From an uncultured delta proteobacterium (GTDB lineage Bacteria; Myxococcota_A; Polyangia; Palsa-1104): a DNA stretch of 64,000 nt. Positions 2,190 through 29,485 of the stretch are shown here, piece by piece (positions within the stretch are counted from its first letter, which is position 1; each line of letters begins with the position of its first letter). The notes under the pieces were generated by a model. The model made no database searches. It had not been told where the DNA came from and saw only the letters and a list, made by a program, of their open reading frames with translations. The position numbers and the translations under genes were made by a program. The DNA lies in NCBI GenBank assembly GCA_963785725.1, contig CAWAWS010000020.1:64001-128000 (forward strand). The letters run 5' to 3'.

Positions 2190-3036
2190 ATGAACGCCAA
2201 AAACATCTATGTGCGAATGTCGATTGCGGCGCTGCTCGGCGGCCCTTTGTTGACGACGACGGGAACGGCGCACGCGCAAGGTCCGGCGGCGGCGCGCGGC
2301 GGCGGCCAACGATCCCGAAGTCGAGGCGGCGCGGCAGCACTTCAAGAAGGGCAACCGGCTCTTCGATTTGCAGCGCTATACCGAAGCCGCGAAGGAGTAC
2401 GAGGCGGCGTACGAGGCCAAGGACGATCCGGCGCTGCTCTTCAATATCGGGCAGGCGTATCGCTTGGCGGCCGATTATCCGAAGGCGATCGGCGCGTACA
2501 AGTCGTTCTTGCGGCGTAATCCGGCGGCGAAGAATCGCGCCGAGCTGGAGACGCGCATCGCCGACCTGCAGCGGCTCGTCGCCGAGCAGAAGCGCACGGA
2601 AGAGGCCACGCCGGCGGACACGGCGCCGCCGACCGACCTGCACGCGACGACCGAGCCGACGGCGCCGGCGCCGCAGCGCGTGTCGTATATCGACTGGAAT
2701 GCCGGCAAGCAGCGGCGCCGCGCGGGCATCGGACTCATGGCCGGCGGCGGCGCGCTCATCATCGGCGGCGCCGTCGTCACCAGCCTCGCCTACTCGCTGC
2801 AGTCGCAACAGAGCCAGCCGTCGAAGGGCACGGCGTTCGATCCGTCGGCGCCGTCGCGGCTGCGCACCGAGCAGGCGACGGGCGCGGTGCTGCTCGGCGT
2901 CGGCGCGGGCGCGGCGGTGGCGGGCGCGATCTCCTATTATTTAGGGCGCAAAGCGACGCATCAGGAGCGGCTGGCGGTGGCGCCGATCGTCGGTAACGGC
3001 GCCGTGGGTCTGACGTTGGCGGGGGTGCTGCAGTGA
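2190..3036 (+). CDS. Secreted TPR protein with C-terminal hydrophobic hairpin; frameshifted near 2295
   Basis: Signal peptide (..TAHAQ) in one frame; TPR ARQHFKKGNRLF..PALLFNIGQAYR in the +1 frame, which has a stop at 2251. Confidence 0.8.
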
Positions 3037-4265
3037 TTCGCGCTGGTTTTCTCGCGTTTTTGTTGTCGGCCACGGGCTGCCTCGCGATCTCGCCGCTCGA
3101 CGGCGCGCTCTCTTGCTCGCCCGGCGGCCACCAATGCCCGTCCGGCTATTACTGCGCGACGGCGAGCAACACCTGCTTCCACGACGGCCACAGCGACGAT
3201 GGCAGCGCGCCTGCCGGCGGCGACCTGAGCTCGGGCGGCGGCGACATGGTCACGGCCACCTGCGTCTTGCCGACCGACTGCCCGCCCGCGCCCTCGTGTT
3301 TCCAGCAGGAGTGCGTCAAAGGTGAATGTGGCCTCGTCGCCACCAACAGCGGCACGGCGCTGCCGCCGGCGCTGCAGACGCCCAACGACTGCCAAGAGCT
3401 GCAGTGCGACGGCGCCGGCAACACGATGACCGTGCCCGATCCGACCGACGTACCGCTCGATCCGACGGGCGGCTGCAACACGACGAGCTGCAACGGCGCC
3501 GCGCAAGTGCTGACGCCGACCGCGTCCGGCACCGCGTGCACCGAGACGGCCAAAGGCATCTGCAACGGCGCCGGCGTCTGCGGCGTCTGCAAACCGGGCA
3601 CGACCCAGTGCAGCTCGACGACCGAGCAGCAGCTGTGCACGAGCGCCGGCACGTGGATGGACAACATGACCTGCAGCGGCACGTGCAGCGGCGGCGTCTG
3701 CGCGGGCACGTGCAACGCGACCAATTACGCGGCCAACTGCGTGGGCACGACGCTGCAGACGTGCACCAGCAACAACATCGTCGGCAGCTCGTGCCAATAC
3801 GCGTGCTGCAGCGGCGCCTGCACCGGCACCTGCACGCCCAACACCACCACCTGCGGCTCGACGACCAGCGTCACCAGCTGCAGCGCCTGCGGCGTGCCGA
3901 CGACGACCGCGTGCGGCGGCGCGACGCCCTATTGCAACGCCGGCAAATGCGTCTCCTGCCAGCCGGGCGCGCAGCGCTGCTGCGCCGACGGCAACGCGGC
4001 CGATTCGCAGACCTGCGCCGCCGACGGCTCGGGCTGGAGCGCCTGCGCGCCGTGCCAGACGAAGGCGGGCGCGACGTTCACGTGCGGCACGGCCACCGCG
4101 ACGACGATCACCTGCGGCTGCGCGACGACCGTCAACGCCTGCGCCAGCTACGGCTGCGGCGAAGCCACGAACGCCTGCGGGCAGAGCGTCGATTGCGGCG
4201 ACTGCGGCGGCGGCAACGCCGTCTGCACCAACCATCAGTGCAAGTGCATCGGCCTGTGCATGTAA
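3033..4265 (+). CDS. Cysteine-rich lipoprotein
   Basis: GTGA overlap with the TPR gene; lipobox LSATGC; dozens of spaced Cys in Thr/Gly-rich repeats. Confidence 0.85.
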   Translation: MIRAGFLAFLLSATGCLAISPLDGALSCSPGGHQCPSGYYCATASNTCFHDGHSDDGSAPAGGDLSSGGGDMVTATCVLPTDCPPAPSCFQQECVKGECGLVATNSGTALPPALQTPNDCQELQCDGAGNTMTVPDPTDVPLDPTGGCNTTSCNGAAQVLTPTASGTACTETAKGICNGAGVCGVCKPGTTQCSSTTEQQLCTSAGTWMDNMTCSGTCSGGVCAGTCNATNYAANCVGTTLQTCTSNNIVGSSCQYACCSGACTGTCTPNTTTCGSTTSVTSCSACGVPTTTACGGATPYCNAGKCVSCQPGAQRCCADGNAADSQTCAADGSGWSACAPCQTKAGATFTCGTATATTITCGCATTVNACASYGCGEATNACGQSVDCGDCGGGNAVCTNHQCKCIGLCM

Positions 4266-4389
4266 CGCCCGCGTCGTCGTCGCTTATGGCTCGGCGTCTC
4301 GCGCTTGGAGCGCGGCGCCAGCGAAGGCGACAGCGGACCTTATCGCTGAACAGCATCTCAATGGCTTACGCGACGCTATGCCTGTCGCG

Positions 4390-5727
4390 TCAACTTACGC
4401 GGCGTTTGAAGCGGAATGTAAACGTCGTGCCGCGCGGGCCGGAGTCGGTGACCTCGATGGTGCCGCCATGCGCCGCCATGATCTTGCGGCATAACGCCAA
4501 GCCCAAGCCGTACCCGCCGGTCTCGCGCACGCGCGATTTGTCGACCCGATAAAACGGCTCGAATATCGCCGTCCGCTCGCCCACGGGAATGCCGTGACCA
4601 TGGTCGCGCACGGCGATGACGACGTCGCCGCTCTCCGCGTCGCTGCCGACGCTGACCTCGACCGGCCGCTCTTGATGCCGCGAATGCGTAATCGCGTTCT
4701 CCAGCACATTCTTGAGCGCGATCTCGATGCGCTTCGGATCGACCGAGAATTTGAGCTGCGGATTGACCGACTGCACGACCACCCCCGGCCGCGTGCCCGC
4801 GAGCTTGGCCGCCACCTCCTGCACCAGCGCGTCGACGCCGGTCTCTTGCAGCGACAATCCGCCGCTGGCCGCGTCGAGCCGCGCCGACTCCAATAGCTCG
4901 GCGATCATGATCTCGAGATCGCGAATGCTCTTGTGGACCTGCTCTTTGGACAGCTCATCGTCGAGCTCGAGCGCCACTTTGAGCCGCGTAATCGGCGAGC
5001 GCAGCTCGTGACTGACGTCCAATAAGAGCTGCTCGCGCGAGCTCAACATACGCGCAATCTCGCGCGTCATATCATTAAATGAATTGGTCAGATCGCCCAA
5101 TTCATCGTCATTTCCCGTACGAATCTGCACGTTGAGCTGCCCGGCGTGCACCAAGCTGACGCCATCGGACAGCCATTGCAGCGGCTTCAAAATGAAGCGA
5201 ATGGCCACGTAATTCAGCGTCAACGCCAACAAGAAGACGCCGATGAGCATCGGCCACCACTCCGGCCGCTCGTCGAGAAAGGTGTCGTTTTCGTAGGAGA
5301 ACAAGAAGGTATAACCGGGACGCGTCAGCTCGACGAAGATGCGACCGCCGCGGCTCACGACCTTGACGCTCGGCTCCCACACGCAGCGATGGCCGGCGTC
5401 GGGGTGCTCGATGGGCGAGATCGGCTGCGTCGCGAAGTCGCAATCGGATCCTTGAATCTTCAGATCCATTCCCGTTTGCGCGACGATCGCTTTGGCGACC
5501 TCCAAGTTCGGCGGCGTGCCGATGCGATCGGCGACGAGCTCGGCATAGAGCTCGCGATTGCGATTGCGGCTCTCCCAGACGCGATCGTGGACATTGAGAA
5601 AATGCGCGGCGATGGCCCAAATCGCCAGCACGATCAATAAGCCGGTGCCGAGGAACACCACTAAGAGCTTGGTGAAGATCGAACGCCGAATGGTCGCGAG
5701 GAACGCCTTGGGCTGCTTAGTCTTCAG
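4390..5727 (-). CDS. HAMP-domain sensor histidine kinase (start CTG 5727 or GTG 5661)
   Basis: Two TM, HAMP (DELGDLTNSFNDM), H-box SHELRSP, N box, DHGHGI, GYGLGL. Confidence 0.92.
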   Translation of the reverse strand: MKTKQPKAFLATIRRSIFTKLLVVFLGTGLLIVLAIWAIAAHFLNVHDRVWESRNRNRELYAELVADRIGTPPNLEVAKAIVAQTGMDLKIQGSDCDFATQPISPIEHPDAGHRCVWEPSVKVVSRGGRIFVELTRPGYTFLFSYENDTFLDERPEWWPMLIGVFLLALTLNYVAIRFILKPLQWLSDGVSLVHAGQLNVQIRTGNDDELGDLTNSFNDMTREIARMLSSREQLLLDVSHELRSPITRLKVALELDDELSKEQVHKSIRDLEIMIAELLESARLDAASGGLSLQETGVDALVQEVAAKLAGTRPGVVVQSVNPQLKFSVDPKRIEIALKNVLENAITHSRHQERPVEVSVGSDAESGDVVIAVRDHGHGIPVGERTAIFEPFYRVDKSRVRETGGYGLGLALCRKIMAAHGGTIEVTDSGPRGTTFTFRFKRRVS

Positions 5728-6439: not shown

Positions 6440-6448
6440 GCCGTTAGA

Positions 6449-8251
6449 TTAGCCCAGTTTTCCGAGCGCGCCGAGCACGACGCCGGCGTTCAACACTTCG
6501 GGCAGCGGCATGGCCGCGCTCTCTTTGCCACGCGGATAGACGACATAAAAAGGCACGCCATTGCGACCGAAGGCGTTGAGCGCCTGCGTAATCATCGGGT
6601 CTTCATTGGTCCAATCGGCTTTGAGCAGCACGAAGCCCAACTCGGTGAGCTTCTTTTTCACTTCGTCGGAATGAAAGATGACCGTCTCGTTGACCTTACA
6701 CGACACACACCACGCGGCCGTGAAGTCGACGAAGACGGGACGACCTTGCGCGCGATAGGCCCCCAACTTCTCCGGCGAATAGGCTTCCCAAATGAGCGCG
6801 TCGCTCTTTTGAATCGTGGTCTCGACGGGCGTCGGCGACAGCTGCGGCTTGGTCAGCGCCAGGCTGGACGACGTGACGACAGCCAGGCCCAACACGATCG
6901 CCATCGGCGCCGTGCGCGCAAAGCGCGAATAGAGCCACGCGGTAAAGCCCAAGCCGACGAAAGCGGTCATCAATAATAGTAGACCGGTCGATGATGATTG
7001 CAGGCTCAAGACCCAGGCCAGCCACAGCGTCGTGCCGAAGATGAGGAACGCCATCACGTGCTTCACCGTCTCCATCCACGCGCCCGGCTTGGGCAGGATG
7101 CGACCCAATCCCGGCAGATAGCAGATGAGCAAGTAAGGCAGCGCCAGGCCGAAGCCGAGCGCCGTGAAGATGGCGAAGACGATGAGCGGCGATTGGCTGA
7201 GCGCGAAGCCGACGGCGGCGCCCATGAACGGCGCCGTGCACGGCGTGGCGACGACGGTGGCGAGCACGCCGGTGAAGAACGGACCGGCCAAGCCCGAGCG
7301 GCGCGTCAGGCCGTCGCCGACGCTGACGAAGGCGCCGTAGATTTCGAAGACGCCCAGCAAATTGAGGCCGAAGACGAACAGAATGCAGGCCAGGACGAAC
7401 ACGAAATGGGGCGACTGCAGCTGAAATCCCCAGCCGATATGCCGGCCACCGAGCCGCAACGCGACCAAAGTGGCGACGAGCGCCCAAAACGACACGAGGA
7501 TGCCGAGCGTGTAAGCCCAGCCCATCTTGCGGACGTCGCGACGATGCTCGCCGGACATTTGCAGGACGCTCAACGCCTTGATCGAGAGGATCGGGAAGAC
7601 GCACGGCATGAGGTTCAATAAGAGGCCGCCCAATAACGCGAATAAGATCGGAAGCCATATCGATCCATTGGCGCGCGGCGTCGCCGGCGTGGCTGCGACA
7701 GCGGGCGTGTCGTTCGTCGCCGCGGGCGGCGCGCTCGCCGCGGCCGGCAGCTGCTTGGCGACCGCGGCGAACCGCGGCTGCTGCGCGGCGTTTGGCACCG
7801 GTTCAGCGCCAATTGGCAGCACCAAGCGCAGCGTGGCCTTGCCGGGGACGCACGTCTCGCCGCACGCCAGCCAGCTGACCTCGGGCGCGAGCACGACCGC
7901 CGTCGCCGACGGCGATTCGCCGATGGTGACGCGAAACGGCAGGCGCACCTGGTCGCGATAGCCGTAGCTGACGGTGCCGCCGGCGGCGATCGTCTCCGGC
8001 GTCGGCCACATGAGCTCGCCGGGCGCGAAGTCGTCATGCGCGCTCCAGGTCACGCGCGGCGCCGTGCCGACTTCACCCGGGTCTTTCCAATAGACGTGCC
8101 AGCCCTTCTCGATCTGCAGATCGACCGCCGCCAGAAAGCGCTGGCCCGGCGCGACCTGCGTCATCTCCGCGACGAGCGCAGCATGGACGGGCTCGGGCTC
8201 GGCGTGCGCCAACGCCGGAATCAACAGCAGGATGAAGCCGAGACGATGCAT
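6449..8251 (-). CDS. dsbD: Thiol:disulfide interchange protein, DsbD family
   Basis: N domain GWHVYWKDPG..ACGETCVPG; TM domain MPCVFP and TPCTAPF; thioredoxin FTAAWCVSCK. Confidence 0.9.
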   Translation of the reverse strand: MHRLGFILLLIPALAHAEPEPVHAALVAEMTQVAPGQRFLAAVDLQIEKGWHVYWKDPGEVGTAPRVTWSAHDDFAPGELMWPTPETIAAGGTVSYGYRDQVRLPFRVTIGESPSATAVVLAPEVSWLACGETCVPGKATLRLVLPIGAEPVPNAAQQPRFAAVAKQLPAAASAPPAATNDTPAVAATPATPRANGSIWLPILFALLGGLLLNLMPCVFPILSIKALSVLQMSGEHRRDVRKMGWAYTLGILVSFWALVATLVALRLGGRHIGWGFQLQSPHFVFVLACILFVFGLNLLGVFEIYGAFVSVGDGLTRRSGLAGPFFTGVLATVVATPCTAPFMGAAVGFALSQSPLIVFAIFTALGFGLALPYLLICYLPGLGRILPKPGAWMETVKHVMAFLIFGTTLWLAWVLSLQSSSTGLLLLMTAFVGLGFTAWLYSRFARTAPMAIVLGLAVVTSSSLALTKPQLSPTPVETTIQKSDALIWEAYSPEKLGAYRAQGRPVFVDFTAAWCVSCKVNETVIFHSDEVKKKLTELGFVLLKADWTNEDPMITQALNAFGRNGVPFYVVYPRGKESAAMPLPEVLNAGVVLGALGKLG

Positions 8252-8285
8252 ACCCCTGATGTAGCAACGCGACCGCCGGCACGGT

Positions 8286-8320
8286 TTTGCAGTTGTGTGA
8301 GAAGTTGTGAACAGATGTTA
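8286..8320 (-). promoter_or_regulatory. Putative OmpR-family binding site upstream of dsbD
   Basis: Minus strand TAACA-N5-TCACA-N5-TCACA-N5-GCAAA, 10-bp period, 35-70 bp upstream of the ATG. Confidence 0.55.
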
Positions 8321-8425
8321 ATGAGCGCAGGCCTGCCGATGCAGCTCGCCAACCACTTGTTTTTCGCGGCGAAGTGAGCAGAGGCGCAGCTCAAATAGGC
8401 GCTGACACGATATCGTCTGCGCTTC

Positions 8426-8868: not shown

Positions 8869-8956
8869 CTTCGCGCACGCTCGAACCGATCGGCAACATC
8901 GCGCGCGTGCCGACAGCGCTGGCGAGCGGCGCCGGCTGCGACGCCCGCGCACGTCG

Positions 8957-11425
8957 ATGAACGCGCGGCTCATCCCGCTCTTCGTCGTGCTGCTCGCCGG
9001 CGGCTGCGAGGACCTTCCCGAGGTCGCGCTCGGCATGTGCGGCAACCACGTCCTCGAGCCGAGCCGCGGCGAAGACTGCGACAACGGCTCGGCCGGCTGC
9101 GGCGCACCGACCGACCCCTTGCGCGCCTGCCGCTTCGTCTGCAGCTCGGTCGTCGCCTGTCCGACCGGCTGGTCCTGCGGCACCGACCGCATCTGCCGCG
9201 AGCCGACCGGCGACTACACGCTCGGCCCCGCCATCACGAGCGCGCGCGGCGCCGCCGGCAACGTCTTCGGCGTCAGCGACGTCGACGGCGACGGCGTGCC
9301 CGACCTGGTCGTGCGCGGCCCGTCGCTGCTCGGCTTCTATCACAACGACGGCTTGGGGCAGTTCACGCCGCTCATCAGCGGCAGCGCGCCGCTCATTGCG
9401 CCGGCGACGACGCCGTGGCCGGCGCTGGCGATCGCGGGCGGCGGCGCGTCCCTCTTGGCGGCGTTCGGCGCCCAAGGCGTGACGGTGGCGACGTGGCAGA
9501 GCGGCACGCTCGATCCGTGGGTGCTGCCGACGACGGTGCTGCCGCAGCTCGGACTGTCGATGGCGAGCGGCCTGCCGGCGCAGCCGCTGTTCGTGGGCGT
9601 CGCCGTACAGCCGCCGGCGACGCCGGTCGCGCTGTTCCTGCAGGACGACACGATCCCGCGTCAGCTCGTGGCCTATCCGCTGAGCACCAACCTCATCGCG
9701 CCGGTGCTGCCGCTGACGGCGGTGCCGGTGCCCGACGCCTGCGTCGGCGACGGACGCTGGGTCGTGCGCACGAGCCCGGTGCCGCAGCCGACGACGCTGG
9801 TAGCGCTGAGCGGCACCGACACCTGCGTCGCCAGCTTCGGCAGCGCCGGCCAGCTGACGCTGCAAGCGCTGCCGACGCCGTCGACGCTGGCCTTGGAGAC
9901 GCGACCGGCGCTGGCCGACATCGACGGCGACGGCAGCCTCGACGTCGTCGCGTCCGTCGAGCAGCTCGGCAGCGGCGTCAACGCGCAGCTCGTGTGGCTG
10001 CAGGCCGCCGGCACCGGCGCGATCGCGTTCGGCGCGCCCATCGTCGTGCCCGTCCAGCATGTCGCCAGCAGCAACAGCGCGCCCATCGCCGACGGCGCCA
10101 TCGGCGTCGGCCGCTTCACGATCGACGGCACGCGCGACGATCTCGTCATCGCCGGCACGGTGCTGCACAACGAGACCAGCGGCAGCGGCAGCGGCTTCGA
10201 TCCCACGTCGGGCTTCCTCGCGTACGCGCCGCCGCCGGGCGCCGCCAGCGGCTCCAATTCGGCCGCCGGCGACCTCAACGGCGACGGCGTCTCCGACTTC
10301 GTCGTGTGGGGCAGCGGCGCCTCCGTCTGCTTCGCCAGCGGCGACAGCGCCGGCAACTTCAGCTGCGCCGCGCTGGCCACGTCGCTGTCGCCGACCGACA
10401 CCGTGCTCATCGGCGACATCAACGGCGACTCGATCGGCGACGTCATCGCCGAGCAAGAGACGGCGCCGGGGACGATTCAGGTGCTGCTCGGCCATTACCG
10501 CGCGGCGCTGGAGCCGGTGGCGGTGACGCCGCAGGCGCCCAACGGCGTCGCGCTCGGCGGCGGCGCGCTGTGGCCCGGCGGCGTCGGGCTCGACGGGCAG
10601 CTGGCCGTCTATATTCCGCGCGCCGGGATCGCCAAAGGCATCGCCGACGCCAACGGCGCCTTCACGTTCAACTACCCCATCGCCGCCATCGACGTCGCCT
10701 TCGTCGGCGGCGATCCCGACTTGTGGGTGGCGACCGAGATGCAAGACGGCGGGCGCGTCATCCGCTTCCCGCACGGCCTCATCACCGGCGCCGTCGAAGC
10801 GCCCTTCGGGCTGCCGGCGAACGGCGCGCGCTTCTTCACGCTCGATCGCAACCAGCCGCTGCCGCTGCTGGTCGACGGCGTGGCGGCGTCGCCGTGGATC
10901 GTGACCGAGAGCGCCGCCGCCGACTCGCCGGCGACCGTGACGATGCTGCCGCCGGCCATCCCGCTGACCAACCAGCTCGTCGTCGACCTCGACGGCGACG
11001 GCATCGCCGAGATCGTGCAGGAGCGCAACACGACCGGCTGCGGCGTGCGCGTGCTGCACTGGGCCCACGCGAGCGCCGACAGCGCCATCGTCGATCCGCC
11101 CACGGTCATCGACACCACGCTCTTGTGCGCCGACTTCTTGGTCATGGACACGCCGCCGTTCGACGGGCGCCTCGATCTCGTGGCCACGCACGGCGACTTC
11201 GGCTCGGGCGACGGTCAGCTCGTGTTTCAGCAGCAGCCCGACTTCACGTTCCTGCAGTCGAACCAGGTGGTCATGATCGACGACGGCACGACGTTCGGCA
11301 CCTTGCCGGTGTCGCTGACCGAGATCGCCACCGTCGACGTCAACGGCGACGGCTTGAGCGACGTCATCGCGCTCACCGAAGACAGCACGCCGCACGCCAT
11401 CATCGCCAACGTCAAGCGGCGATGA
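8957..11425 (+). CDS. FG-GAP/VCBS repeat lipoprotein with Cys-rich N-terminus
   Basis: Lipobox LAGGC; CGNHVLEPSRGEDCD myxobacterial Cys motif; multiple DxDGDG/DxNGDG repeats. Confidence 0.88.
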   Translation: MNARLIPLFVVLLAGGCEDLPEVALGMCGNHVLEPSRGEDCDNGSAGCGAPTDPLRACRFVCSSVVACPTGWSCGTDRICREPTGDYTLGPAITSARGAAGNVFGVSDVDGDGVPDLVVRGPSLLGFYHNDGLGQFTPLISGSAPLIAPATTPWPALAIAGGGASLLAAFGAQGVTVATWQSGTLDPWVLPTTVLPQLGLSMASGLPAQPLFVGVAVQPPATPVALFLQDDTIPRQLVAYPLSTNLIAPVLPLTAVPVPDACVGDGRWVVRTSPVPQPTTLVALSGTDTCVASFGSAGQLTLQALPTPSTLALETRPALADIDGDGSLDVVASVEQLGSGVNAQLVWLQAAGTGAIAFGAPIVVPVQHVASSNSAPIADGAIGVGRFTIDGTRDDLVIAGTVLHNETSGSGSGFDPTSGFLAYAPPPGAASGSNSAAGDLNGDGVSDFVVWGSGASVCFASGDSAGNFSCAALATSLSPTDTVLIGDINGDSIGDVIAEQETAPGTIQVLLGHYRAALEPVAVTPQAPNGVALGGGALWPGGVGLDGQLAVYIPRAGIAKGIADANGAFTFNYPIAAIDVAFVGGDPDLWVATEMQDGGRVIRFPHGLITGAVEAPFGLPANGARFFTLDRNQPLPLLVDGVAASPWIVTESAAADSPATVTMLPPAIPLTNQLVVDLDGDGIAEIVQERNTTGCGVRVLHWAHASADSAIVDPPTVIDTTLLCADFLVMDTPPFDGRLDLVATHGDFGSGDGQLVFQQQPDFTFLQSNQVVMIDDGTTFGTLPVSLTEIATVDVNGDGLSDVIALTEDSTPHAIIANVKRR

Positions 11426-11453
11426 GCGGCGCCGAATCCGGTATGCTCGCCTC

Positions 11454-12728
11454 ATGATCGGCGTGGGCACGGTGATCGCCGAGAGCTATCGCGTCGAGGG
11501 CGAGCTCGGCCGCGGCGGCATGAGCGTCGTCTATCGCGCCACGCACCTGCGCCTGCCGACACGCGTCGCCATCAAGGTCCTGCACGCGCACCTCGGCGAC
11601 GGCACGGCCAAGAGCCGCTTTCGCCGCGAGGCCGAGCTCTTGGCCGCGCTCAAGCATCCCAACATCGTCAGCGTCATCGACTTCAACGAGATCGACGGCT
11701 TCCCCTACTTCGTCATGGAGTATCTCGACGGCGAAGATCTGGCGCAGCGGCTCTTGCGCGATCGCAAGCTGCCCTTGTCGCAGGTGTTGCCGCTGGTGCG
11801 CCAGATGGCCGAGGCGTTGAGCGCGGCGCACGAGCGCGGCATCGTCCATCGCGATCTGAAGCCGCAGAACGTCTTCTTGTGCCATCCGCCGGCCGGCTCG
11901 TCGACGCCGACGGTGAAGCTGCTCGACTTCGGCATCTCCAAGCTGCTCGGCTCGTCGGACGGCTTGACCGGCAGCGCGCTCACGATGGGCACGCCCAGCT
12001 ACATGTCGCCCGAGCAGGCGCGCGGCGAGAGCGGCCACGTCGATGCGCGCGCCGATCAGTTCGCGCTGGCGCTCATCGTGTACGAGCTGCTGGCGGGGAA
12101 TCATCCGTTCCGCAGCGCCGAGGCGCCTCTGGTGACGATGTCGCGCATCGTCTCGGCGGAGGCGCCGCCGATCGCCGATCTGCCGGCGGGCCTCATGCGC
12201 GTCCTTCTGCGGGCGCTGGCCAAGCAAGCCGACGCGCGTTGGGCCAGCGTCGGCGAATTCGCCGCCATGCTCGACGCGGCCGCGGGCGGCGGGCCGCCGA
12301 CGACCGCGCCGGCGCCGCCGCGACGGAGGCCGCTGACGTGGGCGATCGTCGCGGCGGGCGCGGCGGTCGCCGTCGGCGGCGGCGCCCTCGTCGTGCAGCG
12401 CGCGCGACACGCCGCGCCGGCGGCCGTCGCGCCCGCGACGCCGCCGCCGCCGGTCGCGCAAGTCCCGTCGACCGCCGATCTCGCCGCCGGCGCGACGGCG
12501 CCGGTGAGCGGCAGCGCGTCGCCGTCCGCGTCGCCGGTCGCGGCAGCTTCGAGCAGCGACGTAGGCGACGCGGCGACGAAGCCAGCGCCAATGCCGGCGA
12601 AGCCGAAGGCGAAAGCGAAAACCGACGCCAAGCCGAATGCGAAACCGAATACGAAATCGAATACGAAGCCGACGAAGCCGACGAGGATCGATCCGCAGTT
12701 TCGGCTCGAGGATCCATTTGCGCGCTAG
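11454..12728 (+). CDS. Hanks-type Ser/Thr protein kinase, single TM
   Basis: GRGGMS, VAIK, HRDLKPQN, DFG, YMSPE; TM then Ala/Pro/Lys-rich tail ending LEDPFAR. Confidence 0.95.
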   Translation: MIGVGTVIAESYRVEGELGRGGMSVVYRATHLRLPTRVAIKVLHAHLGDGTAKSRFRREAELLAALKHPNIVSVIDFNEIDGFPYFVMEYLDGEDLAQRLLRDRKLPLSQVLPLVRQMAEALSAAHERGIVHRDLKPQNVFLCHPPAGSSTPTVKLLDFGISKLLGSSDGLTGSALTMGTPSYMSPEQARGESGHVDARADQFALALIVYELLAGNHPFRSAEAPLVTMSRIVSAEAPPIADLPAGLMRVLLRALAKQADARWASVGEFAAMLDAAAGGGPPTTAPAPPRRRPLTWAIVAAGAAVAVGGGALVVQRARHAAPAAVAPATPPPPVAQVPSTADLAAGATAPVSGSASPSASPVAAASSSDVGDAATKPAPMPAKPKAKAKTDAKPNAKPNTKSNTKPTKPTRIDPQFRLEDPFAR

Positions 12729-12731
12729 GTT

Positions 12732-13859
12732 ATGATGAGGGCGATCATCATAAGCGTGCTGCTCGTCGTTGCCGGACTCGGCCGCGCGGCGGCGGGCGAG
12801 GCGCAGCCGGTCGAGGACGCGCGCCGCCTCTATCTCGCCGGCCGGCAAGCGTACGAGGCGGGGCGGCTCGAGGTCGCGGCGGCGTCGTTCGAAGCGGCGT
12901 ACGGGCAGGAGCCGCGGCCGGCCCTCTTGTGGAACTTGGGGCAGACCTATCGCCGGCTGTTCATCGTGCATCAGCAGCTCGAGCAGCTGCGCCGCGCCGT
13001 CGACGCCTATCGCAACTACCTCATCGGCTCGCCGACGGGGGAGAATCGCGACGAAGCGACGCGCCTCTTGGCCGAGCTGACGCCGCTCTTGTTGCGGCTC
13101 GATCCGGGCAGCGTCGGCAGTGCGCCCGCGCCGCCGGCGCCGAGCCCGGCCAAGACCGAGCTCATGATCCTCGCCGACGCGTCAGCGGCGACGGTCGAGC
13201 TCGACGGCCGCGCGGCGACGCCGGCGCCGCTGTTGGCCGAGGTCGGCGAAGGCGAGCATCACGCGCGCGTCGCCGGGCCGGGCTATGCGCCGGTGGAGCT
13301 GAAGGTGCAAGCCGTCGCCGGGCGGCTGGTGACGAGCGAGGCGCGCCTGGTGCCGCTGCCGGCGTTGGTCGACGTGTACGGGCCGCGCGGCGCGCAGCTG
13401 CTCGTCGACCAACACGCCGCCGGACGGCTGCCGCACGCGACGCTGCCGCTGACCGAGGGCGCGCACGCCGTCACCGTCTTGGCCAACGGGCGCGTGCCGT
13501 GGTCGTCGTCGCTGACGCTGAGCCGCGGCGATCGCGTGGCGCTGCAGGCGCGCCTGCGGCCGACGCGCCAGCGGCGCGCCGTGCCCTGGCTGCTCGGCCT
13601 CGCCAGCGCGTCGGCGCTCCTGTCGATTCCGTTCGCTGCCGTCTGGGGACAGGCGGAATCGGCCGCCGACAAGCTGGAGACGATGCGGCTCGATGGCAGC
13701 CTGACGCTGGCACAGACGGCGACGTACACGAACGATCGCGCGCGGCTCGAGCAGTTCCGCGCGGCCACGATCGTGACGCTGAGCCTCACGGCCGTATTGG
13801 GCACGACGACCGCCGCCCTCTTCTGGCTCGACCACCCCAAGCAGGCCGACGACAACTAG
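12732..13859 (+). CDS. TPR and PEGA domain protein
   Basis: Signal peptide; ARRLYLAGRQAY..PALLWNLGQTYR TPR; two PEGA-like units; two C-terminal hydrophobic helices. Confidence 0.88.
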   Translation: MMRAIIISVLLVVAGLGRAAAGEAQPVEDARRLYLAGRQAYEAGRLEVAAASFEAAYGQEPRPALLWNLGQTYRRLFIVHQQLEQLRRAVDAYRNYLIGSPTGENRDEATRLLAELTPLLLRLDPGSVGSAPAPPAPSPAKTELMILADASAATVELDGRAATPAPLLAEVGEGEHHARVAGPGYAPVELKVQAVAGRLVTSEARLVPLPALVDVYGPRGAQLLVDQHAAGRLPHATLPLTEGAHAVTVLANGRVPWSSSLTLSRGDRVALQARLRPTRQRRAVPWLLGLASASALLSIPFAAVWGQAESAADKLETMRLDGSLTLAQTATYTNDRARLEQFRAATIVTLSLTAVLGTTTAALFWLDHPKQADDN

Positions 13860-14806: not shown

Positions 14807-14848
14807 GTCGCGCGATCATAACGTCGATCGCGCCGACCGCCAGGACGC

Positions 14849-17968: not shown

Positions 17969-18487
17969 CTAAGGCCCGAGGTCGGCCGGCGGAACCAGCG
18001 CCAGCGTCAGCGTGCCCAAGTCGAGCGGCGGCTGGCCCGGGAACGTCGCCGTCACCGCTTGCGACTCGTAGTCGACGCCCGCCGCCGGCGAGAACTGCCC
18101 GCCGCCCTGCATGTAGAGCACGGCCAGCACCTGCTTCGTGCCGCTCAACCCGGTCGCGTCGATGGGCAGCCGCAGCGACTGGCCCGCCGTCAGCGTCGGA
18201 TTGTCCTGGTAGAGGATGCCCGCCGGCGGACCGGTCACGGGCAGCGAATCGAACGCGGCGACGAGCAGCTGCCGCGTCGTGCCCGTAAAGCTCGCCGGCA
18301 CGACGATCAGCACCGACGAGCCGGCGAGCGCGAGGTCGGCCGTCGCCGCCAGGTCGTGCCCGCCGCCGTTGCCGCCGGTGCCGCTCGTCGTCGCCAGATC
18401 GTACGTCGTCGTGCCACCGCCGCCGGACGTGGACGAGCCGCCGCAGCCAATGATGACGAGCAACATCAATAGACCCACCTGACGCAT
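17969..18487 (-). CDS. Hypothetical lipoprotein
   Basis: GGAG RBS; lipobox IIGC; Gly/Thr linker with DLA x3; beta-rich C domain; 9 bp downstream of the cytochrome gene. Confidence 0.8.
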   Translation of the reverse strand: MRQVGLLMLLVIIGCGGSSTSGGGGTTTYDLATTSGTGGNGGGHDLAATADLALAGSSVLIVVPASFTGTTRQLLVAAFDSLPVTGPPAGILYQDNPTLTAGQSLRLPIDATGLSGTKQVLAVLYMQGGGQFSPAAGVDYESQAVTATFPGQPPLDLGTLTLALVPPADLGP

Positions 18488-18496
18488 GCGATCTCC

Positions 18497-21373: not shown

Positions 21374-21710
21374 GTTGACCTCATGGGCGTTCGCTCCTTC
21401 AGCGGTCCGTTGGAAACGTCGAGCGGCGCGCGCGGAACGGCGCGCAAGGCGAGACAGGTCTAGTTAAGTATTTTTTTAATGTCAACGATCATGCGGCAAC
21501 TGGCTGATCTGGAGCGTGAAGATCGCCTTCAGGCCAACGAGCGAGAAACCGGCCGGCAACACGAGAAATCGCGGGCGCGACTAGGTGAACCTAGGTTTCC
21601 GAGCGCCGTTTGCGACGCGCGATCAACAGCTGCGCGAAAACTGGTATGACTGGCGAAATTCTCGCGCCGGTACCTCGCGAACGGCCGACGCGAGCCACGC
21701 TATAGAGGTC

Positions 21711-22193
21711 ATGACCTTGAGAACAGCTCGTCTTCGAATTGGGAGCGCCCTGGCCGGCGCCGTGCTCGCGTGCCTGCCCGGCGCCGCGCACGCGACGTTG
21801 GGCGGCACCGTCGCCACCATCACCACCAACCAGCAGCACTTGAGCGCCAAGCGCACGGTGCAGCCGCTGATCAACGGCCAGCGGCATGATCTGACGCTGG
21901 CGTCGGGCACGATCGTGCACGAGTACCTGTCGGCCAAGGGCGACGTCTACGCCGTCACCTGGCGCGGACCGCGCAAGCCCGATCTGACGGAGCTGCTCGG
22001 CAGCTACTTCGCGCAGCTCAGCGCGCCGGCGCAGGGTCGTCGTCGCGGCGGCCACCATCACGTGCAGCTCAACGGCCAAGACCTCGTCGTGCAGTCGAGC
22101 GGCCACAACAACTTCTTCAGCGGCCGCGCCTGGGTTCCGTCGCTGGTGCCGGCGGGCGTCGATCCGACCCTCGCCGTGCAGGTGGGACAGTAA
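21711..22193 (+). CDS. DUF2844 family secreted protein
   Basis: Signal AHA-TLGG; SGTIVHEY..VYAVTWRGP..PDL..LLGSYF..SSGH..FSGRAWVP. Confidence 0.85.
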   Translation: MTLRTARLRIGSALAGAVLACLPGAAHATLGGTVATITTNQQHLSAKRTVQPLINGQRHDLTLASGTIVHEYLSAKGDVYAVTWRGPRKPDLTELLGSYFAQLSAPAQGRRRGGHHHVQLNGQDLVVQSSGHNNFFSGRAWVPSLVPAGVDPTLAVQVGQ

Positions 22194-22194
22194 A

Positions 22195-23538
22195 ATGACG
22201 CGCATCCACTTCCATTTCATGGTCCTTCCGCTCGTCGCCGCCATCGGCTGCGGCGGCAGCCACAAGAATCCCCCGACGACGGCGGACGACATGAGCGTCG
22301 CCGCGCCCGCGCCCGACTTGAGCGCCCCGGCGCCGTCGCCCGACTTGAGCCCGCCGCCCGGCAACGCCACGCTCGGCACCGACGGCGGCTACGAAGGTGA
22401 CGGCGGCCTCGGCATCACCGGCAGCAACGTCGCGCCCGTCATCGTCGACGACGGTCCCAGCACCCTCTCCTCCGGCTCGGCCAACGTGCCCTTCATCAGC
22501 GTCACCGTCTGCGTCCCGGGCACGTCGACGTGCGCGACCGTCGACCACATCTCCGTCGACACCGGCTCGACCGGCCTGCGCATCATCGCCTCGGCGCTGC
22601 CGGCCGACTTCACGCTGCCGCAAGCGACCGGCAGCGACACCAAGCCGCTCACCGAGTGCTTCTCGTTCGAGGACGGCTTCGTCTTCGGCTCGGTGCGCAA
22701 CGCCGACGTCAAGATCGGCGGCGAGTCGGCGGCCAACATCCCGCTGGAGCTCATCGGCGATCCGGCCTATCCGAAGTCGAGCATCCCGTCTAACTGCACC
22801 GGTACGAACGAAGGCACCGTCGACACCTTCGGCGGCAACGGCATCATCGGCATCAACCAATGGCTCGCCGATTGCGGCAGCGACTGCGCGTCGGCGACGG
22901 CGGTGGCCAATAGCTACACCTTCTATTACTCGTGCACGGGCACGACCTGCGCGTATATCCCCGTGCCGATCGCCAACCAGGTGCCCAACCCGGTGAGCAA
23001 GTTCGCCGTCGACAACAACGGCGCCATCCTGCAGTTCCCCGACGTGTCGGAAGCGGGCGGCGCGAACCTGCCGGGCGTGCTCATCTTCGGCATCGGCACG
23101 CAGACCAACAACGCGCTCGGCAACGCCAACGTCATCCCCGTCGACCAAGACACCTACTTCACGACCACCTATAAAGGCACCACGGCCCAGTACAGCTACA
23201 TCGACTCGGGGACGAGCCTCATGTACTTCAGCGACGCGTCGATTACGGCGTGCGACCCGAACGGCAATGACGCCGGCCTCTTCTGCCCGGCGACGGTGTT
23301 GAACCTCTCGGGTCAGATGGCCGGCGTCGGCGGCGCGCTGCCGACGAGCAACTTCACCGTCGCCAACGCCGATACGGTGTTCCAGAACGACACGTTCACC
23401 GCGTTCAACGACGTCGCCGGCGACAGCGGCGACCCGACGACGTTCGCCTGGGGCTTCGACTTCTTCCTCGGTCGCAAGGTCTTCACGGCCTTCGCATTGC
23501 CCGCCAACAACAACGGCAACGGCTACTTCGCCTACTAA
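22195..23538 (+). CDS. DUF3443 family lipoprotein, probable pepsin-like aspartic protease
   Basis: Lipobox AIGC; NPV and DNNG motifs; VDTGS and IDSGT. Confidence 0.85.
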   Translation: MTRIHFHFMVLPLVAAIGCGGSHKNPPTTADDMSVAAPAPDLSAPAPSPDLSPPPGNATLGTDGGYEGDGGLGITGSNVAPVIVDDGPSTLSSGSANVPFISVTVCVPGTSTCATVDHISVDTGSTGLRIIASALPADFTLPQATGSDTKPLTECFSFEDGFVFGSVRNADVKIGGESAANIPLELIGDPAYPKSSIPSNCTGTNEGTVDTFGGNGIIGINQWLADCGSDCASATAVANSYTFYYSCTGTTCAYIPVPIANQVPNPVSKFAVDNNGAILQFPDVSEAGGANLPGVLIFGIGTQTNNALGNANVIPVDQDTYFTTTYKGTTAQYSYIDSGTSLMYFSDASITACDPNGNDAGLFCPATVLNLSGQMAGVGGALPTSNFTVANADTVFQNDTFTAFNDVAGDSGDPTTFAWGFDFFLGRKVFTAFALPANNNGNGYFAY

Positions 23539-23642
23539 GCGGTTCGCCTTCCCGCACTAAGCCTGTCGTAATCCTCGCAGCGCCTCGCAATCCTCTGGCA
23601 TAGCCGTTTGCGGCGAATTCTGGCGGCGCTACAGTCGCCGCC

Positions 23643-25532: not shown

Positions 25533-25556
25533 GCGTTCACGCGGGCGATAGCGGCG

Positions 25557-25586
25557 TTGACGCGGATTCGACGGCGCTGTTATGCT
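25557..25586 (+). promoter_or_regulatory. Sigma70-type promoter of the TPR gene
   Basis: TTGACG-N18-TATGCT with TG extension, 20 bp upstream of ATG 25607. Confidence 0.6.
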
Positions 25587-25606
25587 GTGGCGAGCGAATT
25601 CTTTAT

Positions 25607-26434
25607 ATGATCAAATATTCGTCACTCGTAAGCATCGCATCGCTCGTGCTGGCGCTGGCCGGCGCGCCGACGACGGCCGCGGCCGCACCGACGCAAGCGG
25701 CGCAAGACAAGCTGGCGCGCCTGCACTTCGAGGCCGGCAAGCAGGCCTACGAGCTCGGCCGCTTCGCCGACGCCGCCATCGAGTTCCAGCGCGGCTACGA
25801 TCTGTCGAAGCTGCCGCTGTTCCTGCTCAACCTGGGCCATTCCTACTTCGCGCTCGATCGCTTCGAAGACGCCATCAAAGCCTGCGAGCAGTATCTGGCG
25901 CTCAATCCGAACGATCCGGTGCACGTCCGCGAAGCCGAGGATCTGCTGACGAGCGCGCAGCGGCACAAGCAGCTGCAAGCGCCGACCACGCCGCCGCCGG
26001 AAACGACCACGGCGCCGGCGCCGCCGGTCACGCCCGAGGCGCCGCCGCCGCCGCCGCCGGTGAATGACACCGCGCCGCGGCGCGGGCCGGCGCATCCCGC
26101 GCTCGGCTGGACCGGCGTCGTCGGCATGGTCGTCGGCGCCGGGTTGATCGCCGGCGGCGCCGTGCTGCTCGTCGACGCCGGCAATCTCAACGACACGTTC
26201 AACCACCCCGCGCCCGGCACCGTCTACAACCACAGCATGGTCTCACGCTTTCAGACCGATCAGGCCGCGGGCATCGGGCTCGTCGCCGTCGGCGGCGCGA
26301 TCGTGGTCGCCGGCGCCGTCGCGACGATCGTCGGCTTTCGCCACGCGCCGGAAGCGCCGAGCGGCAGCGCCTGGTGGATCGCGCCGTCACTCGCGCCGAC
26401 CGCCGTCGGCGCCGTCTCCGGCTTCCGCTTCTAA
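25607..26434 (+). CDS. Secreted TPR protein with C-terminal hydrophobic hairpin
   Basis: Signal; ARLHFEAGKQAY..PLFLLNLGHSY; Pro/Thr linker; two Gly-rich helices; ends GAVSGFRF; paralogue of 2190-3036. Confidence 0.88.
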   Translation: MIKYSSLVSIASLVLALAGAPTTAAAAPTQAAQDKLARLHFEAGKQAYELGRFADAAIEFQRGYDLSKLPLFLLNLGHSYFALDRFEDAIKACEQYLALNPNDPVHVREAEDLLTSAQRHKQLQAPTTPPPETTTAPAPPVTPEAPPPPPPVNDTAPRRGPAHPALGWTGVVGMVVGAGLIAGGAVLLVDAGNLNDTFNHPAPGTVYNHSMVSRFQTDQAAGIGLVAVGGAIVVAGAVATIVGFRHAPEAPSGSAWWIAPSLAPTAVGAVSGFRF

Positions 26435-26440
26435 CGCAGC

Positions 26441-26467
26441 CGTTCGTGAGCGTTCGTGAGCGTTCGT
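26441..26467. repeat. 10-bp tandem repeat CGTTCGTGAG, about 2.7 copies
   Basis: Read directly between convergent genes. Confidence 0.8.
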
Positions 26468-26550
26468 CGCGCGGGTCGTAAGCGTTGTCGCGCGCGTCGT
26501 AGGCGGCACCGTTTGCCGCGGATTGTCGGTCAGCGCGGTGCGGCTGGCGG

Positions 26551-28168
26551 TTACGGCGTGGCGAACGGGTCGGCGATGACCGACTTCGGCTTCTTCGCGA
26601 CCGGTCGCGCGGCAGCGACGCGCGGCAACGTCGCCGACAACACCGCCTCGGTATCGCCGTCGACTTCGCGCTTATAGCGACCGAAGCCGGCCTTGCGCAC
26701 CAAGATCGAGCGCACGCCCGGCTTACGCGGCAGCTCGGTGTCGAGCGGAATCTGCCCCAACACCGCGCCGTCGACGAGCACGTCGGCGCCGTCGGTGCCG
26801 GTGACGCGCAGCCGCACCGTCGCCGGCGCCGCCAGCCGACCGGACGCCGCCGCGCCCGCCGCCGCTTCCGACGACGGCAGCGCCGGCGGATTCGAGCGAC
26901 GCCGTCGACGCCACCGAATGCGCCGGCGCGCCGGCGGCAGCGACGTTGATGACGACCGGATCCGGCGTCGAATGCAGCGCGCCGCGTCCGAGCAGGATGG
27001 CCATGGCCGCGATGGCGCCCACGACCGCGCCGCCGATGACCGGCAGCCGCTTGCGCCAGCCCGACGGCGGCAACACGATCGCCGCGCTCTCGACGAGCTC
27101 GCCCTTCATGTACGCGCGCGAGCCTTGCGAGCCGTCCGGCTCCAGCTCGAGCTCGGGGATCGACTTCAGGAACGCGTCCGACGCCGACAGCGGCTTGGCC
27201 GTCGAGCGCACCGGCAGCTGCAGCCCTTCCATGAACTGCCGCAAGCCGGCCGCGTCGCCGCCGCCGAGCCGACGCGCGATCGGCGCCAGCGCGGCCACGA
27301 TCTCGTCGGCGTGCTGATAGCGAACCGCCGTGTCACGCGCCAGCATGCGCATGACCACCATCTCCAGCTCGGCGTCGATGCCCGGCGTCAAGATCGACGG
27401 CCGCAAGATATCGACGTCGCACACGTTGCGGATGGTCTGCGCGTCGGTGTCGGCCTTGAACAGGCGACGCAGCGTCAGGCACTCGTAAAAGACGACCCCG
27501 AGCGCGAAGATATCGGTGCGCCCGTCGACGGGAAGGCCCTGAATCTGCTCCGGCGACATGTAGCTGAGCTTGCCCTTGAGCGTGCCGGTGCGCGTGCGCT
27601 CTTCGCGGGCGTGCGTCGACGCTTTGGCGATGCCGAAGTCGACGAGCTTCATGTTGCCGTGGCGCGTGACCATGACGTTCGAGGGCGTCACGTCGCGATG
27701 CACGATCTCGAGCGGCTGATTCTCTTCGTCGACGAGCGCGTGCGCATAGGCCAGCGCGCCCGCCAGCTCGCTCATCATGTAGCAGAGCAGGCCTTGCGGC
27801 GGCGCGTGGTTCAGCTGCCGCGCTTGGCGCAAGATGGTGTTCAGATCGAAGCCGTCGACCAGCTCCATCGCCAGGTAATATTCGCCGTCGACGTCGCCGA
27901 ACTCGTGCACCTGCACGATGTTCGGATGGAGCAGGAGGCCGGCCAGCCGCGCTTCGGCGGCCAGCATCGTGACGAAGCTGGGATCGTGCGCCAGATGCGG
28001 AATGACGCGCTTGATGACGAGCGTGCGCGAGAAGTTCTTGGGGCCGTTGACGACGGCGCGATAGACGATCGCCATACCGCCGACGCCCAGCCGCTCGAGC
28101 AGCCGGTAGCGCCCGAACGGAACGCCCTTGACTGTCAGTTCGCCTGCCACTCGCGCAGACTGTCTCAT
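26551..28168 (-). CDS. Ser/Thr protein kinase with TM and PEGA domain; frameshifted near 26890
   Basis: GVGGMA, LVIK, HRDVTPSN, DFG, YMSPE; PEGA unit and VIADPFATP* lie in a second frame (26551-26890). Confidence 0.88.
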
Positions 28169-28426
28169 TCGCGAACCACTGCCGTCAATTGATGTTTATT
28201 AAACGTAATTGAAAACGCATTTATTCGTAAGCCAATAAACTCGGGCGAATCGCGCTAAAGAGCGGATTTGCCGTCAGTGTCAACGACACTTCCAGCGACA
28301 TATCCCACACCGATATCCTGCTGCCGACATATGGAAACGTAATCGCAGAAACTAATTATACGGATCTGATTCCAACAGCACGATTCCCGCGCGCTGATAT
28401 ATTTACAAGGTGGTCCAGCGAGAGGA

Positions 28427-29485
28427 ATGTCCTACGTGATGCGAATGCTTCCGCTGCTCGATGACCATCGGCTCTTGTCGCGGCTGGCGCTGCTCTTCGC
28501 AGGCGCGAGCGCGCTCGGCGGCTGTCTCAAGATCGATCCCACCGACGGCGTGCTCTTGTGCGGCGCGGCGCCCAACATCTGCCCATCGGGATATACGTGC
28601 GCGGCCGACCAGCACTGCTGGAAGTCGCCACCCGTCGGCGGCGGCGATTTGAGCGGCGTCACCTTCGATCTGTCGCCGGACACGCGCGATCTGTCGGCGG
28701 CGCCGGGCGATGATCTCTCGGCGCCGACGGGATCGACGGACATGGCGATGACGGTGAATCCGCCGGTCGTCGACATGGCGATGACGAAGCCGAGCCCCGA
28801 CTTGGCGACGACGCCGCCGGACATGACGGTGGTCTTCAACTATTGCCCGGCGGGGACGATCTTCTGCGACGACTTCGAGAATGACACCATCGCCATCAAC
28901 GCGGCGGGCGACTGGACCGACACGTTCGTGATGCCGGCCAACGGCGGACAGACGCTGGCGACGGGCACGGCGCAGAAGCACGACGGCACGCACGCGCTGC
29001 ACGCGGCCGCCAACAACACCGGCGCCGACTCGTGGTCGACGATCGAGTACAAGCTGACGACGCCGCAGTCGTCGCTGGCGATGCGCATGTTCGTCTACCC
29101 GGCCGCGAACCTCAACAATCGCGGCGAAGTGATGCGCATCTTCAGTGTCGCCGACACGACGTCCAACGGCTATCAGGTCGGCGGCGCGGCCGACGGCAAG
29201 TGGTTCATCTCCGACAGCCTCGGCGGCTCGGCCGATCACGAGTCGTCGGTGTCGGTGGCGACGGGCGCGTGGACGTGCCTCGAGCTCGTCGTGCCGGCCA
29301 CGGGCAACGTGTCGCTCTACATCAACGGCGCGGCGACGCCGGCGATCAACTTCGCGCCGCTCAAGCACGAGCCGTATGACACGATCCACTCCGGCGTCGA
29401 GTGGGCGCCGCAAGGCATTCCCGTCGACGTCTGGATCGACGAGGTCGCGCTCAACACGAGCCGCCTGCCCTGCCCGACCAACTGA
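28427..29485 (+). CDS. Lipoprotein: Cys module, DLS/DMA linker, ConA/LamG-like beta-sandwich
   Basis: Lipobox ALGGC; IFCDDFE..GAWTCLEL..LYING..VWIDEVAL; divergent from the kinase across an AT-rich gap. Confidence 0.85.
   Translation: MSYVMRMLPLLDDHRLLSRLALLFAGASALGGCLKIDPTDGVLLCGAAPNICPSGYTCAADQHCWKSPPVGGGDLSGVTFDLSPDTRDLSAAPGDDLSAPTGSTDMAMTVNPPVVDMAMTKPSPDLATTPPDMTVVFNYCPAGTIFCDDFENDTIAINAAGDWTDTFVMPANGGQTLATGTAQKHDGTHALHAAANNTGADSWSTIEYKLTTPQSSLAMRMFVYPAANLNNRGEVMRIFSVADTTSNGYQVGGAADGKWFISDSLGGSADHESSVSVATGAWTCLELVVPATGNVSLYINGAATPAINFAPLKHEPYDTIHSGVEWAPQGIPVDVWIDEVALNTSRLPCPTN

Follow-up and report, generated by a model that had tools for sequence, protein, structure and literature searches.

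Three gene clusters, A, B and C, in a 64,000-nucleotide stretch of DNA from an uncultured delta proteobacterium (GenBank assembly GCA_963785725.1, contig CAWAWS010000020.1, positions 64,001 to 128,000; hereafter the window) are built from related parts: a tetratricopeptide repeat (TPR) protein, a lipoprotein and, in B and C, a Hanks-type Ser/Thr kinase. Do these parts belong to one system and, if so, which of them holds it together? The initial annotation proposed a three-part module for signalling or export across the envelope. We found that the system is a pair of links, both of which run through the TPR protein, here called the adaptor: one with kinases that end in a short motif, the other with lipoproteins matched in type to the membrane anchor of the adaptor. 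Lipoprotein and kinase genes, taken alone, are no closer to each other than expected by chance.

The three clusters

The genes of the three clusters are as follows.

2190..3036, plus strand: cluster A adaptor; signal peptide and TPR unit of five helices, joined by a Pro/Thr linker to a class-2 anchor
3033..4265, plus strand: cluster A lipoprotein; 410 amino acids (aa), lipobox Cys16, Cys module at ~3078-3176
8957..11425, plus strand: cluster B lipoprotein; lipobox (by inspection), Cys-rich N-region, partial Cys module, FG-GAP repeats
11454..12728, plus strand: cluster B Hanks kinase with its catalytic motifs intact; one transmembrane (TM) helix, tail LEDPFAR (DPF at 12711-12719)
12732..13859, plus strand: cluster B adaptor; TPR unit at 12801-13106 after the signal peptide, then two PEGA domains and two hydrophobic helices
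25607..26434, plus strand: cluster C adaptor; signal peptide, TPR unit at ~25694-25978, Pro linker, helical hairpin at ~26099-26341, tail ending GFRF
26551..28168, minus strand: cluster C Hanks kinase; a TM helix and linker follow the kinase domain, then a PEGA-like domain and the tail IADPFATP (DPF at 26563-26571)
28427..29485, plus strand: cluster C lipoprotein; lipobox Cys33, Cys module at ~28523-28620, D-L/M repeat linker, LamG/concanavalin-like cargo

All eight genes of the initial annotation were borne out at these coordinates, as was the DPF tail common to the B and C kinases. Pfam recognised TPR in the three adaptors (in B below the cut-off), PEGA in the B adaptor, FG-GAP in the B lipoprotein, LamG in the C lipoprotein, and PF00069 (Pkinase) in both kinases (E 5e-45 in B, 5e-34 in C), which show the Hanks motifs (Gly loop, HRD, DFG, APE-like). 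The A and C adaptors share 29% identity over 239 aa (E 1e-26), and the N-modules of their lipoproteins 44% over 52 aa (E 5e-9). The proposed sharing of the lipoprotein Cys module extends only in part to B. The B adaptor carries a 7-residue insert in its TPR unit and lacks a terminal strand at its C-terminus, and what the B lipoprotein has in common with the others is limited to a C..CPxGxxC..C pattern and the residues immediately following the lipobox; the Cys-module profile did not match it, and blastp gave E 0.011-0.35.

Cluster A is, as first described, a coupled TPR/lipoprotein pair without an adjacent kinase: the adaptor stop overlaps the lipoprotein start (GTGA), and the closest kinase lies 7159 nt off. 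Its anchor consists of two Gly-rich hydrophobic helices and a terminal strand, and in its lipoprotein a D-L/M-S linker precedes Cys-rich cargo with 55 Cys and no Pfam match. Cluster B was confirmed as FG-GAP lipoprotein, kinase and TPR-PEGA protein, all on the plus strand; the kinase linker comprises 110 residues rich in Pro, Ala and Lys. Cluster C contains the three gene types reported for it, but not in a common operon, since its kinase is on the minus strand, convergent with the adaptor gene and divergent from the lipoprotein gene. A promoter scan of cluster C returned one site (25557-25586) versus 0.4 expected, which is not used as evidence. A close homologue of the cluster C adaptor is recorded under 'Polyangia bacterium'.

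Frameshifts are common in the source genome (G000; 8.9 Mb, 47 contigs, 88% complete), and 11 of its 171 kinase loci are split within the domain. The cluster A adaptor switches frame near 2300, with third-position GC of 0.78 and then 0.89 across the two frames, versus 0.37 if frame 1 continued. The cluster C kinase switches near 26891, with its PEGA domain and DPF motif encoded in the other frame; codon-position GC is 0.90, then 0.91 in the new frame versus 0.64 in the old. At this site, contigs of related strains from 3/4 soil runs have one base fewer, and the kinase-lipoprotein junction is spanned by single soil-run contigs. Related strains therefore possess the whole kinase in the same arrangement.

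Tailed kinases adjoin the adaptor family

Adaptors were defined in the source genome as matches to a TPR-unit profile scoring at least 50 bits, the next-best match having 39 bits. The resulting 65 proteins share a layout: a five-helix TPR unit comes after the signal peptide, and a flexible linker joins it to a hydrophobic C-terminal anchor, of which there are two kinds. Proteins of this very common class carry no annotation beyond 'TPR' or 'PEGA domain protein'. Family matches occurred in 81/120 sampled genomes of the phylum; there was no plasmid match.

The kinase tail was defined as [DN]P[FYW] within 9 residues of the C-terminus of six-frame open reading frames (ORFs) of the source genome. 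It was present in 22/184 kinase ORFs versus 10/4244 other coding-like ORFs, two of these ten being frameshifted kinase tails; by locus, 25/171 kinases bear it. For 29 tails picked for the motif, which sits 0-4 residues before the C-terminus, the profile was D-(I/L/V)-(I/L/V)-[D21,N8]-P29-[F25,Y3,W1], or more broadly (D/E)-hydrophobic-hydrophobic-[DN]-P-[FYW]. Tailed kinases have a single hydrophobic helix after the kinase domain, followed by an extracytoplasmic stalk of 105-179 residues (22 kinases). The tail is conserved; the stalk before it is not.

With adjacency set at no more than 300 nt, an adaptor adjoined 15/22 tailed kinases versus 8/149 others, and random placement gave a mean of 0.58 and a maximum of 4 in 300. 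When frameshifted tails were counted, the figures became 17/25 versus 6/146; five of these six untailed neighbours end, by eye, in an acidic-hydrophobic stretch that may be a degenerate tail. No tailed kinase (0/22) lay beside any of the 108 other TPR proteins of the genome. Chance co-location of tailed kinases and adaptors is rejected.

We then turned to 60 high-scoring loci from 35 other genomes of the phylum, sampled from ~510 matches. A kinase adjoined 24 of the adaptors, and 14/23 readable kinase ends carried the tail; as these loci contain only 2 non-adjacent kinases, the background rate is that of the source genome. One family, f14 (L025, L027, L032, L040, L042, L049, L051-L053), consists of kinase-adaptor pairs that no lipoprotein follows, and its adaptors end in an acidic-hydrophobic tail (e.g., ELLD) that replaces the terminal strand.

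A profile search of 1.8 billion representatives retrieved 519 proteins at E 1e-30. The best 150 of the 519, which favour multi-unit proteins, included 45 with two or more units plus an anchor and 7 in which DP[FW] motifs share a chain with TPR units. The proteins P0019, P0023, P0028, P0054, P0059, P0069 and P0058 have 2-7 tandem copies of the TPR unit, no signal peptide or anchor, and linkers holding IxDPW (or IDPF/LNPF) motifs. When a natural tandem-unit protein was folded, pLDDT was 75 in the IVDPW linker block, 43 in a motif-free linker and 81 in another linker. Separately, two ORFs of the source genome (G000:C4:123106-125589 and C35:40489-42432) have at their end a TPR with weak likeness to the family (28-36 bits); the first is a kinase and possibly a kinase-TPR fusion.

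Lipoprotein type follows the adaptor anchor

A lipobox gene directly followed 41/65 adaptors, versus 12/126 other TPR genes and 39/800 random genes, and a looser window gave 42/65 versus 66/600. Most of these gene pairs are translationally coupled. The cargo domains of the lipoproteins vary (lectin-like, FG-GAP, Kelch, RCC1, LamG/TIG, NHL, Cys-rich). Co-occurrence, proposed initially as a check, thus proved far above chance for both the kinase-adaptor and the adaptor-lipoprotein pair, and is repeated elsewhere in the phylum.

The 65 adaptors comprise 32 of class 1, with one Gly-rich helix and a short tail as anchor, 26 of class 2, with two helices and usually a terminal strand, and 7 unclassified; all three window adaptors belong to class 2. 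In leave-one-out typing, a beta-rich N-module was found in every lipoprotein after a class 1 adaptor (21/21), and the Cys module in 16/20 after class 2, the remaining 4 scoring <3 bits on both profiles. Typing across genomes used lipoprotein profiles from the source genome only, on which the class-1 profile was likewise built. Among 106 adaptors of other genomes, 14 beta-type lipoproteins followed class 1 and 24 Cys-type followed class 2, without a single cross pair, the remaining adaptors having no lipoprotein or an untyped one. Of these pairs, 12 and 18 came from 46 adaptors in loci of named metagenome-assembled genomes, and 2 and 6 from the 60 adaptors of the 35-genome sample. A further 38 adaptors, some in loci overlapping the earlier set, gave 11 beta-type and 5 Cys-type lipoproteins and again no cross pair.

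On a tree of TPR units (65 rows, 92 columns), anchor classes were intermixed, and one pair with 100/99 support joined different classes; lipoprotein type therefore follows the anchor and not the TPR unit. The initial proposal that the lipoprotein docks on the TPR protein survives in altered form: as its type tracks the anchor class and not the TPR tree, docking is most likely on the C-terminal membrane anchor.

Could the two pairings simply be unrelated cassettes, kinase-adaptor and adaptor-lipoprotein, that spread by duplication, with matches reflecting co-inheritance and no three-part complex ever formed? Triples are indeed a minority (8/58 classified adaptors; 14 have a kinase only, 33 a lipoprotein only and 3 neither), cluster C is not an operon, and the support of the tree is thin (17/62 branches). 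Yet the class match was kept without adjacency in 3/3 classifiable cases within 4 kb, cluster C included, and the tail is conserved where the stalk is not. The cluster B trio also stays together after reordering. In G132, a genome of another genus, it recurs in a new order as a tail-bearing gene (end LEDPFAK, the kinase domain lying past the contig end), lipoprotein and adaptor; the adaptor is 50% identical to that of cluster B, and the lipoprotein has an ortholog there. This reordered set was found in 1/41 other genomes searched. We consider separate cassettes quite unlikely.

In the ESM Atlas, the class-2 anchor resembled Myxococcota clusters of 113-116 aa without Pfam assignment (0.95-0.96), with DUF5683 at only 0.82, and the Cys module one unnamed cluster (0.92), with DUF7107/Dickkopf_N at 0.84; we take these as leads only. 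The 113-116 aa proteins look like a class-2 anchor standing alone. A class-2-anchor-like domain also ends 6 non-TPR ORFs of the source genome, 2 of which have a lipoprotein next.

Membrane location of the adaptor

A signal-peptide pattern with a short h-region and basic n-region was present at 61/65 adaptor N-termini (by regular expression, not SignalP), with an AxA site in 52/65. In 3 of 12 relatives, chosen mostly for atypical ends, the TPR unit heads a Plug and TonB-dependent barrel (L054, L057, L172); among the same 12, L089 joins it to an OmpA domain and L050 has a weak outer-membrane barrel match. The L057 fusion lies between an upstream kinase and a downstream lipobox gene. Signal peptides and barrel fusions place the TPR outside the cytoplasm, as the initial annotation required, and a cytoplasmic TPR is disfavoured. 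The hairpin loop of 75 two-helix proteins held no Cys in 64 and two in 11, never one, which suggests a disulfide. As both faces of the hairpin would be extracytoplasmic, the simplest placement is in the outer membrane. These features suggest that the adaptor is an outer-membrane protein with a periplasmic TPR.

AlphaFold2 modelled the cluster C adaptor (34-row alignment) with a mean pLDDT of 82.7. The model has a TPR unit of five helices (3-22, 26-40, 43-55, 59-71, 77-97; pLDDT >90), a loose linker and a long helical hairpin (pLDDT 80-90). The C-terminal region of ~110 aa is made of two helices and ~30 residues, and no multi-strand barrel was present. The top VIA match was Tah1 with an Hsp90 C-terminal peptide (4cgu; Z 15.7, rmsd 2.1, 91 aligned residues, 16% identity), tied with a designed TPR; such helical-repeat scores indicate fold, not function. 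Foldseek gave no match at E 0.001, and the matches from VIA and from a sequence search of the PDB were confined to the TPR part, with none over the anchor.

A C-terminal F or W was found in 17/26 class 2 adaptors and 43/60 members from other genomes, versus 129/2952 in the background, and F/W-ending tails alternate, with a hydrophobic residue or Gly at -3, -5 and -7 in 51, 54 and 55 of 60. The beta-signal of BAM substrates is given in PMC13067283 as GxxPhixPhi with a terminal aromatic, an aromatic at -3 and Gly at -6. Two points here tell against an outer-membrane location: the canonical signal occurs in only 5/60 F/W-ending tails, and AlphaFold2 assigned no strand to the cluster C tail (pLDDT 45-53).

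Alternatively, the adaptor might be an inner-membrane co-receptor, forming a periplasmic complex beside the kinase or binding the kinase domain through a cytoplasmic TPR, as does the kinase-associated TPR protein MkapB of Myxococcus xanthus. Basic residues flank TM helices on the cytoplasmic side (the positive-inside rule), and in the source genome Lys/Arg are indeed found next to the anchor helices on the side of the TPR (2.2-2.8 per 12 residues), the pattern of a cytoplasmic TPR. Nor, on a translocon scale, was hydrophobicity measurably lower in the anchor helices than in the TM helices of the kinases (p 0.15 and 0.52), and a periplasmic disulfide loop is compatible with this placement. Both measurements count against the outer membrane. 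The signal peptides, however, direct the TPR out of the cytoplasm; were it periplasmic on an inner-membrane anchor, the paired-Cys loop would lie in the cytoplasm; and neither barrel fusions nor the excess of terminal F/W fits such a protein. We consider an inner-membrane co-receptor unlikely.

Comparison with known systems

The initial annotation drew an analogy with FecA/FecR, in which the periplasmic N-terminal domain of an outer-membrane protein contacts the C-terminus of an inner-membrane protein. The three relatives with a TonB barrel resemble FecA, but the window adaptors have no barrel, and the output is a kinase, unlike the anti-sigma/ECF pair FecR/FecI. Among 44 ORFs around 14 kinase loci we found no FecR and one sigma70 region-4 match. 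TagQ/TagR/PpkA was judged the closer working analogue. PMC13713981 presents it as the sensor module of the Pseudomonas aeruginosa H1 type VI secretion system (T6SS), in which TagR, a periplasmic FGE-domain protein, is said to bind a folded PpkA domain, and proposes action via kinase dimerisation. The likeness lies in a lipoprotein, in the Pseudomonas module one of the outer membrane, and an envelope adaptor that act on a Hanks kinase whose periplasmic linker is disordered. A single-pass Hanks kinase and a partner lipoprotein with lipobox are found here as well; a membrane-anchored TPR adaptor, a short motif at the kinase end, dozens of paralogues and variable cargo set the present system apart. 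The window adaptors contain no FGE-sulfatase domain (Pfam at E 0.05 gave TPR and PEGA only), and no T6SS, Fha or phosphatase genes of this type were among the 44 ORFs. On this comparison, the system likely works like TagQ/TagR/PpkA without being a member of that module.

The Slam (type XI) exporter is a TPR-bearing envelope protein with a 14-strand barrel, encoded beside its cognate lipoprotein. Here too the gene of a TPR envelope protein adjoins that of a matched lipoprotein; the anchor, however, is predicted to be a helical hairpin with a short terminal strand and not a 14-strand barrel, and there is the link to kinases. A rival reading is that adaptor and lipoprotein form a unit for surface display or export, which would follow Slam-like logic with a helical or oligomeric pore, the TPR serving the lipoprotein as periplasmic chaperone and kinases being optional. 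That the lipoprotein is the commoner neighbour and mostly coupled, that 33/58 adaptors have no adjacent kinase and that class-2 tails finish in an alternating strand with terminal F/W would all be expected of such a unit. It leaves unexplained why tailed kinases and not others adjoin the family, and why f14 pairs have no following lipoprotein, and the cluster C model shows no multi-strand barrel. We regard display or export as fairly unlikely.

The carboxylate clamp of Tah1/Hop-type TPRs binds the last residue of the partner. The adaptor unit shares with Tah1 and Hop (4cgu, 1elw) the five-helix fold and a helix-3 Asn, conserved in at least 90% of the sequences (alignment A7). It differs in its low identity (16% to Tah1) and in the position of the motif that it would recognise, 0-4 residues before the C-terminus and internal in other proteins; a carboxylate clamp is therefore not shown.

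PMC11032199 describes receptor kinases of Planctomycetota and Sorangium to which periplasmic TPR arrays are fused, with a TPR function that it calls mostly unknown, and GlnH-GlnX-PknG, in which an exported binding protein signals through a membrane protein to a kinase. The adaptors would resemble the former in tying an extracytoplasmic TPR to a kinase and the latter in passing a signal from exported binding protein to membrane protein, and differ from the arrays in that the TPR is a separate anchored protein; the passages on these systems describe neither the tail motif nor the adaptor-lipoprotein pair. KapC (MXAN_1668) of M. xanthus is a kinase-associated protein found in vesicles, according to the literature examined, which includes PMC7159879, PMC11032199, PMC13067283, PMC4158809, PMC12288465 and PMC3986340.

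A proposed mechanism

We propose that exported TPR adaptors, likely seated in the outer membrane, would connect a variable lipoprotein with a Ser/Thr kinase of the inner membrane. The class match makes it likely that the N-module of the lipoprotein binds the outward part of the anchor, and it is quite probable that the kinase tail binds the TPR groove. An outer-membrane position of the anchor, with a periplasm-facing TPR, is probable to a somewhat lesser degree. Ligand binding by the cargo would then cluster adaptors and bring kinase tails together, leading to autophosphorylation, a step that we advance tentatively and rate just short of even. Adaptor-lipoprotein pairs without a kinase, such as cluster A, may serve kinases encoded elsewhere or use no kinase. 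Lipoprotein-adaptor-kinase signalling as a whole is, in our estimate, evenly poised.

Beyond the points raised above on membrane location, several observations weigh against this mechanism. No adaptor lies within 300 nt of 8/25 tailed kinases. Among 46 adaptors fetched by a DPALLFN-type motif, only 2 lie next to a kinase, and neither of these kinases bears a strict tail. Both neighbours are present for just 8/58 classified adaptors, and Cys-module lipoproteins lie within 3 kb of a kinase in 6/23 cases (random mean 3.25, maximum 9), within chance, so that the module first proposed resolves into two pairwise links. No shared output gene was found among the 44 ORFs around 14 kinase loci, which include one FHA-sigma54 activator, one receiver-sigma54 activator and the sigma70 region-4 sigma factor. 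Since the DNA encoding anchor and N-module is adjacent, co-inheritance can account for part of the class match, and p-values are overstated because the genomes are related.

Other genes of the window

Five further loci of the window were noted.

6449-8251, minus strand: between clusters A and B, a DsbD-type thiol:disulfide protein in the neighbourhood of Cys-rich exported proteins
17969-21373, minus strand: 958-aa beta-propeller and cytochrome c protein, then a 172-aa lipoprotein-like gene without Pfam match
21585-23538, plus strand: DUF2844 gene, then a DUF3443 lipoprotein with D-L-S linker repeats as in the module lipoproteins
29662-31908, plus strand: TPR and M48 peptidase membrane protein directly after the cluster C lipoprotein, its TPRs outside the adaptor family
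62662-63024, plus strand: small lipoprotein-like gene, rich in Cys, that has a related C..CxxGxxC pattern but no adjoining adaptor

Significance

Searches of the open-access literature returned no account of the adaptor family, its class-matched lipoproteins or the kinase tail motif. The association is real, non-random and widespread, and would be a form of lipoprotein-adaptor-kinase signalling across the envelope that is built from unrelated parts and has undergone a large paralogous expansion. Judged from sequence, the family is likely an undescribed plug-and-play route from surface signals to many kinases. It is possible, though doubtful, that it amounts to a combinatorial receptor code, in which alpha-helical outer-membrane adaptors would carry type-matched, cargo-swappable lipoproteins outside and, inside, a TPR socket for the DPF tails of dozens of kinases that otherwise lack a sensor, and would also couple TonB-dependent transporters to kinases.

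Alpha-helix-anchored outer-membrane proteins are rare, Wza and GspD being the examples given in PMC13067283. A large alpha-helical outer-membrane family with matched lipoproteins would bear on how lipoproteins are delivered to the surface.

Myxobacteria possess hundreds of Ser/Thr kinases, and many membrane kinases here have a flexible stalk in place of a sensor. If the tail plugs into adaptors, the very common 'TPR' and 'PEGA domain protein' annotations would gain a role, the missing input of a large kinase subset would be named, and its test would shrink to a short peptide and a 100-residue domain.

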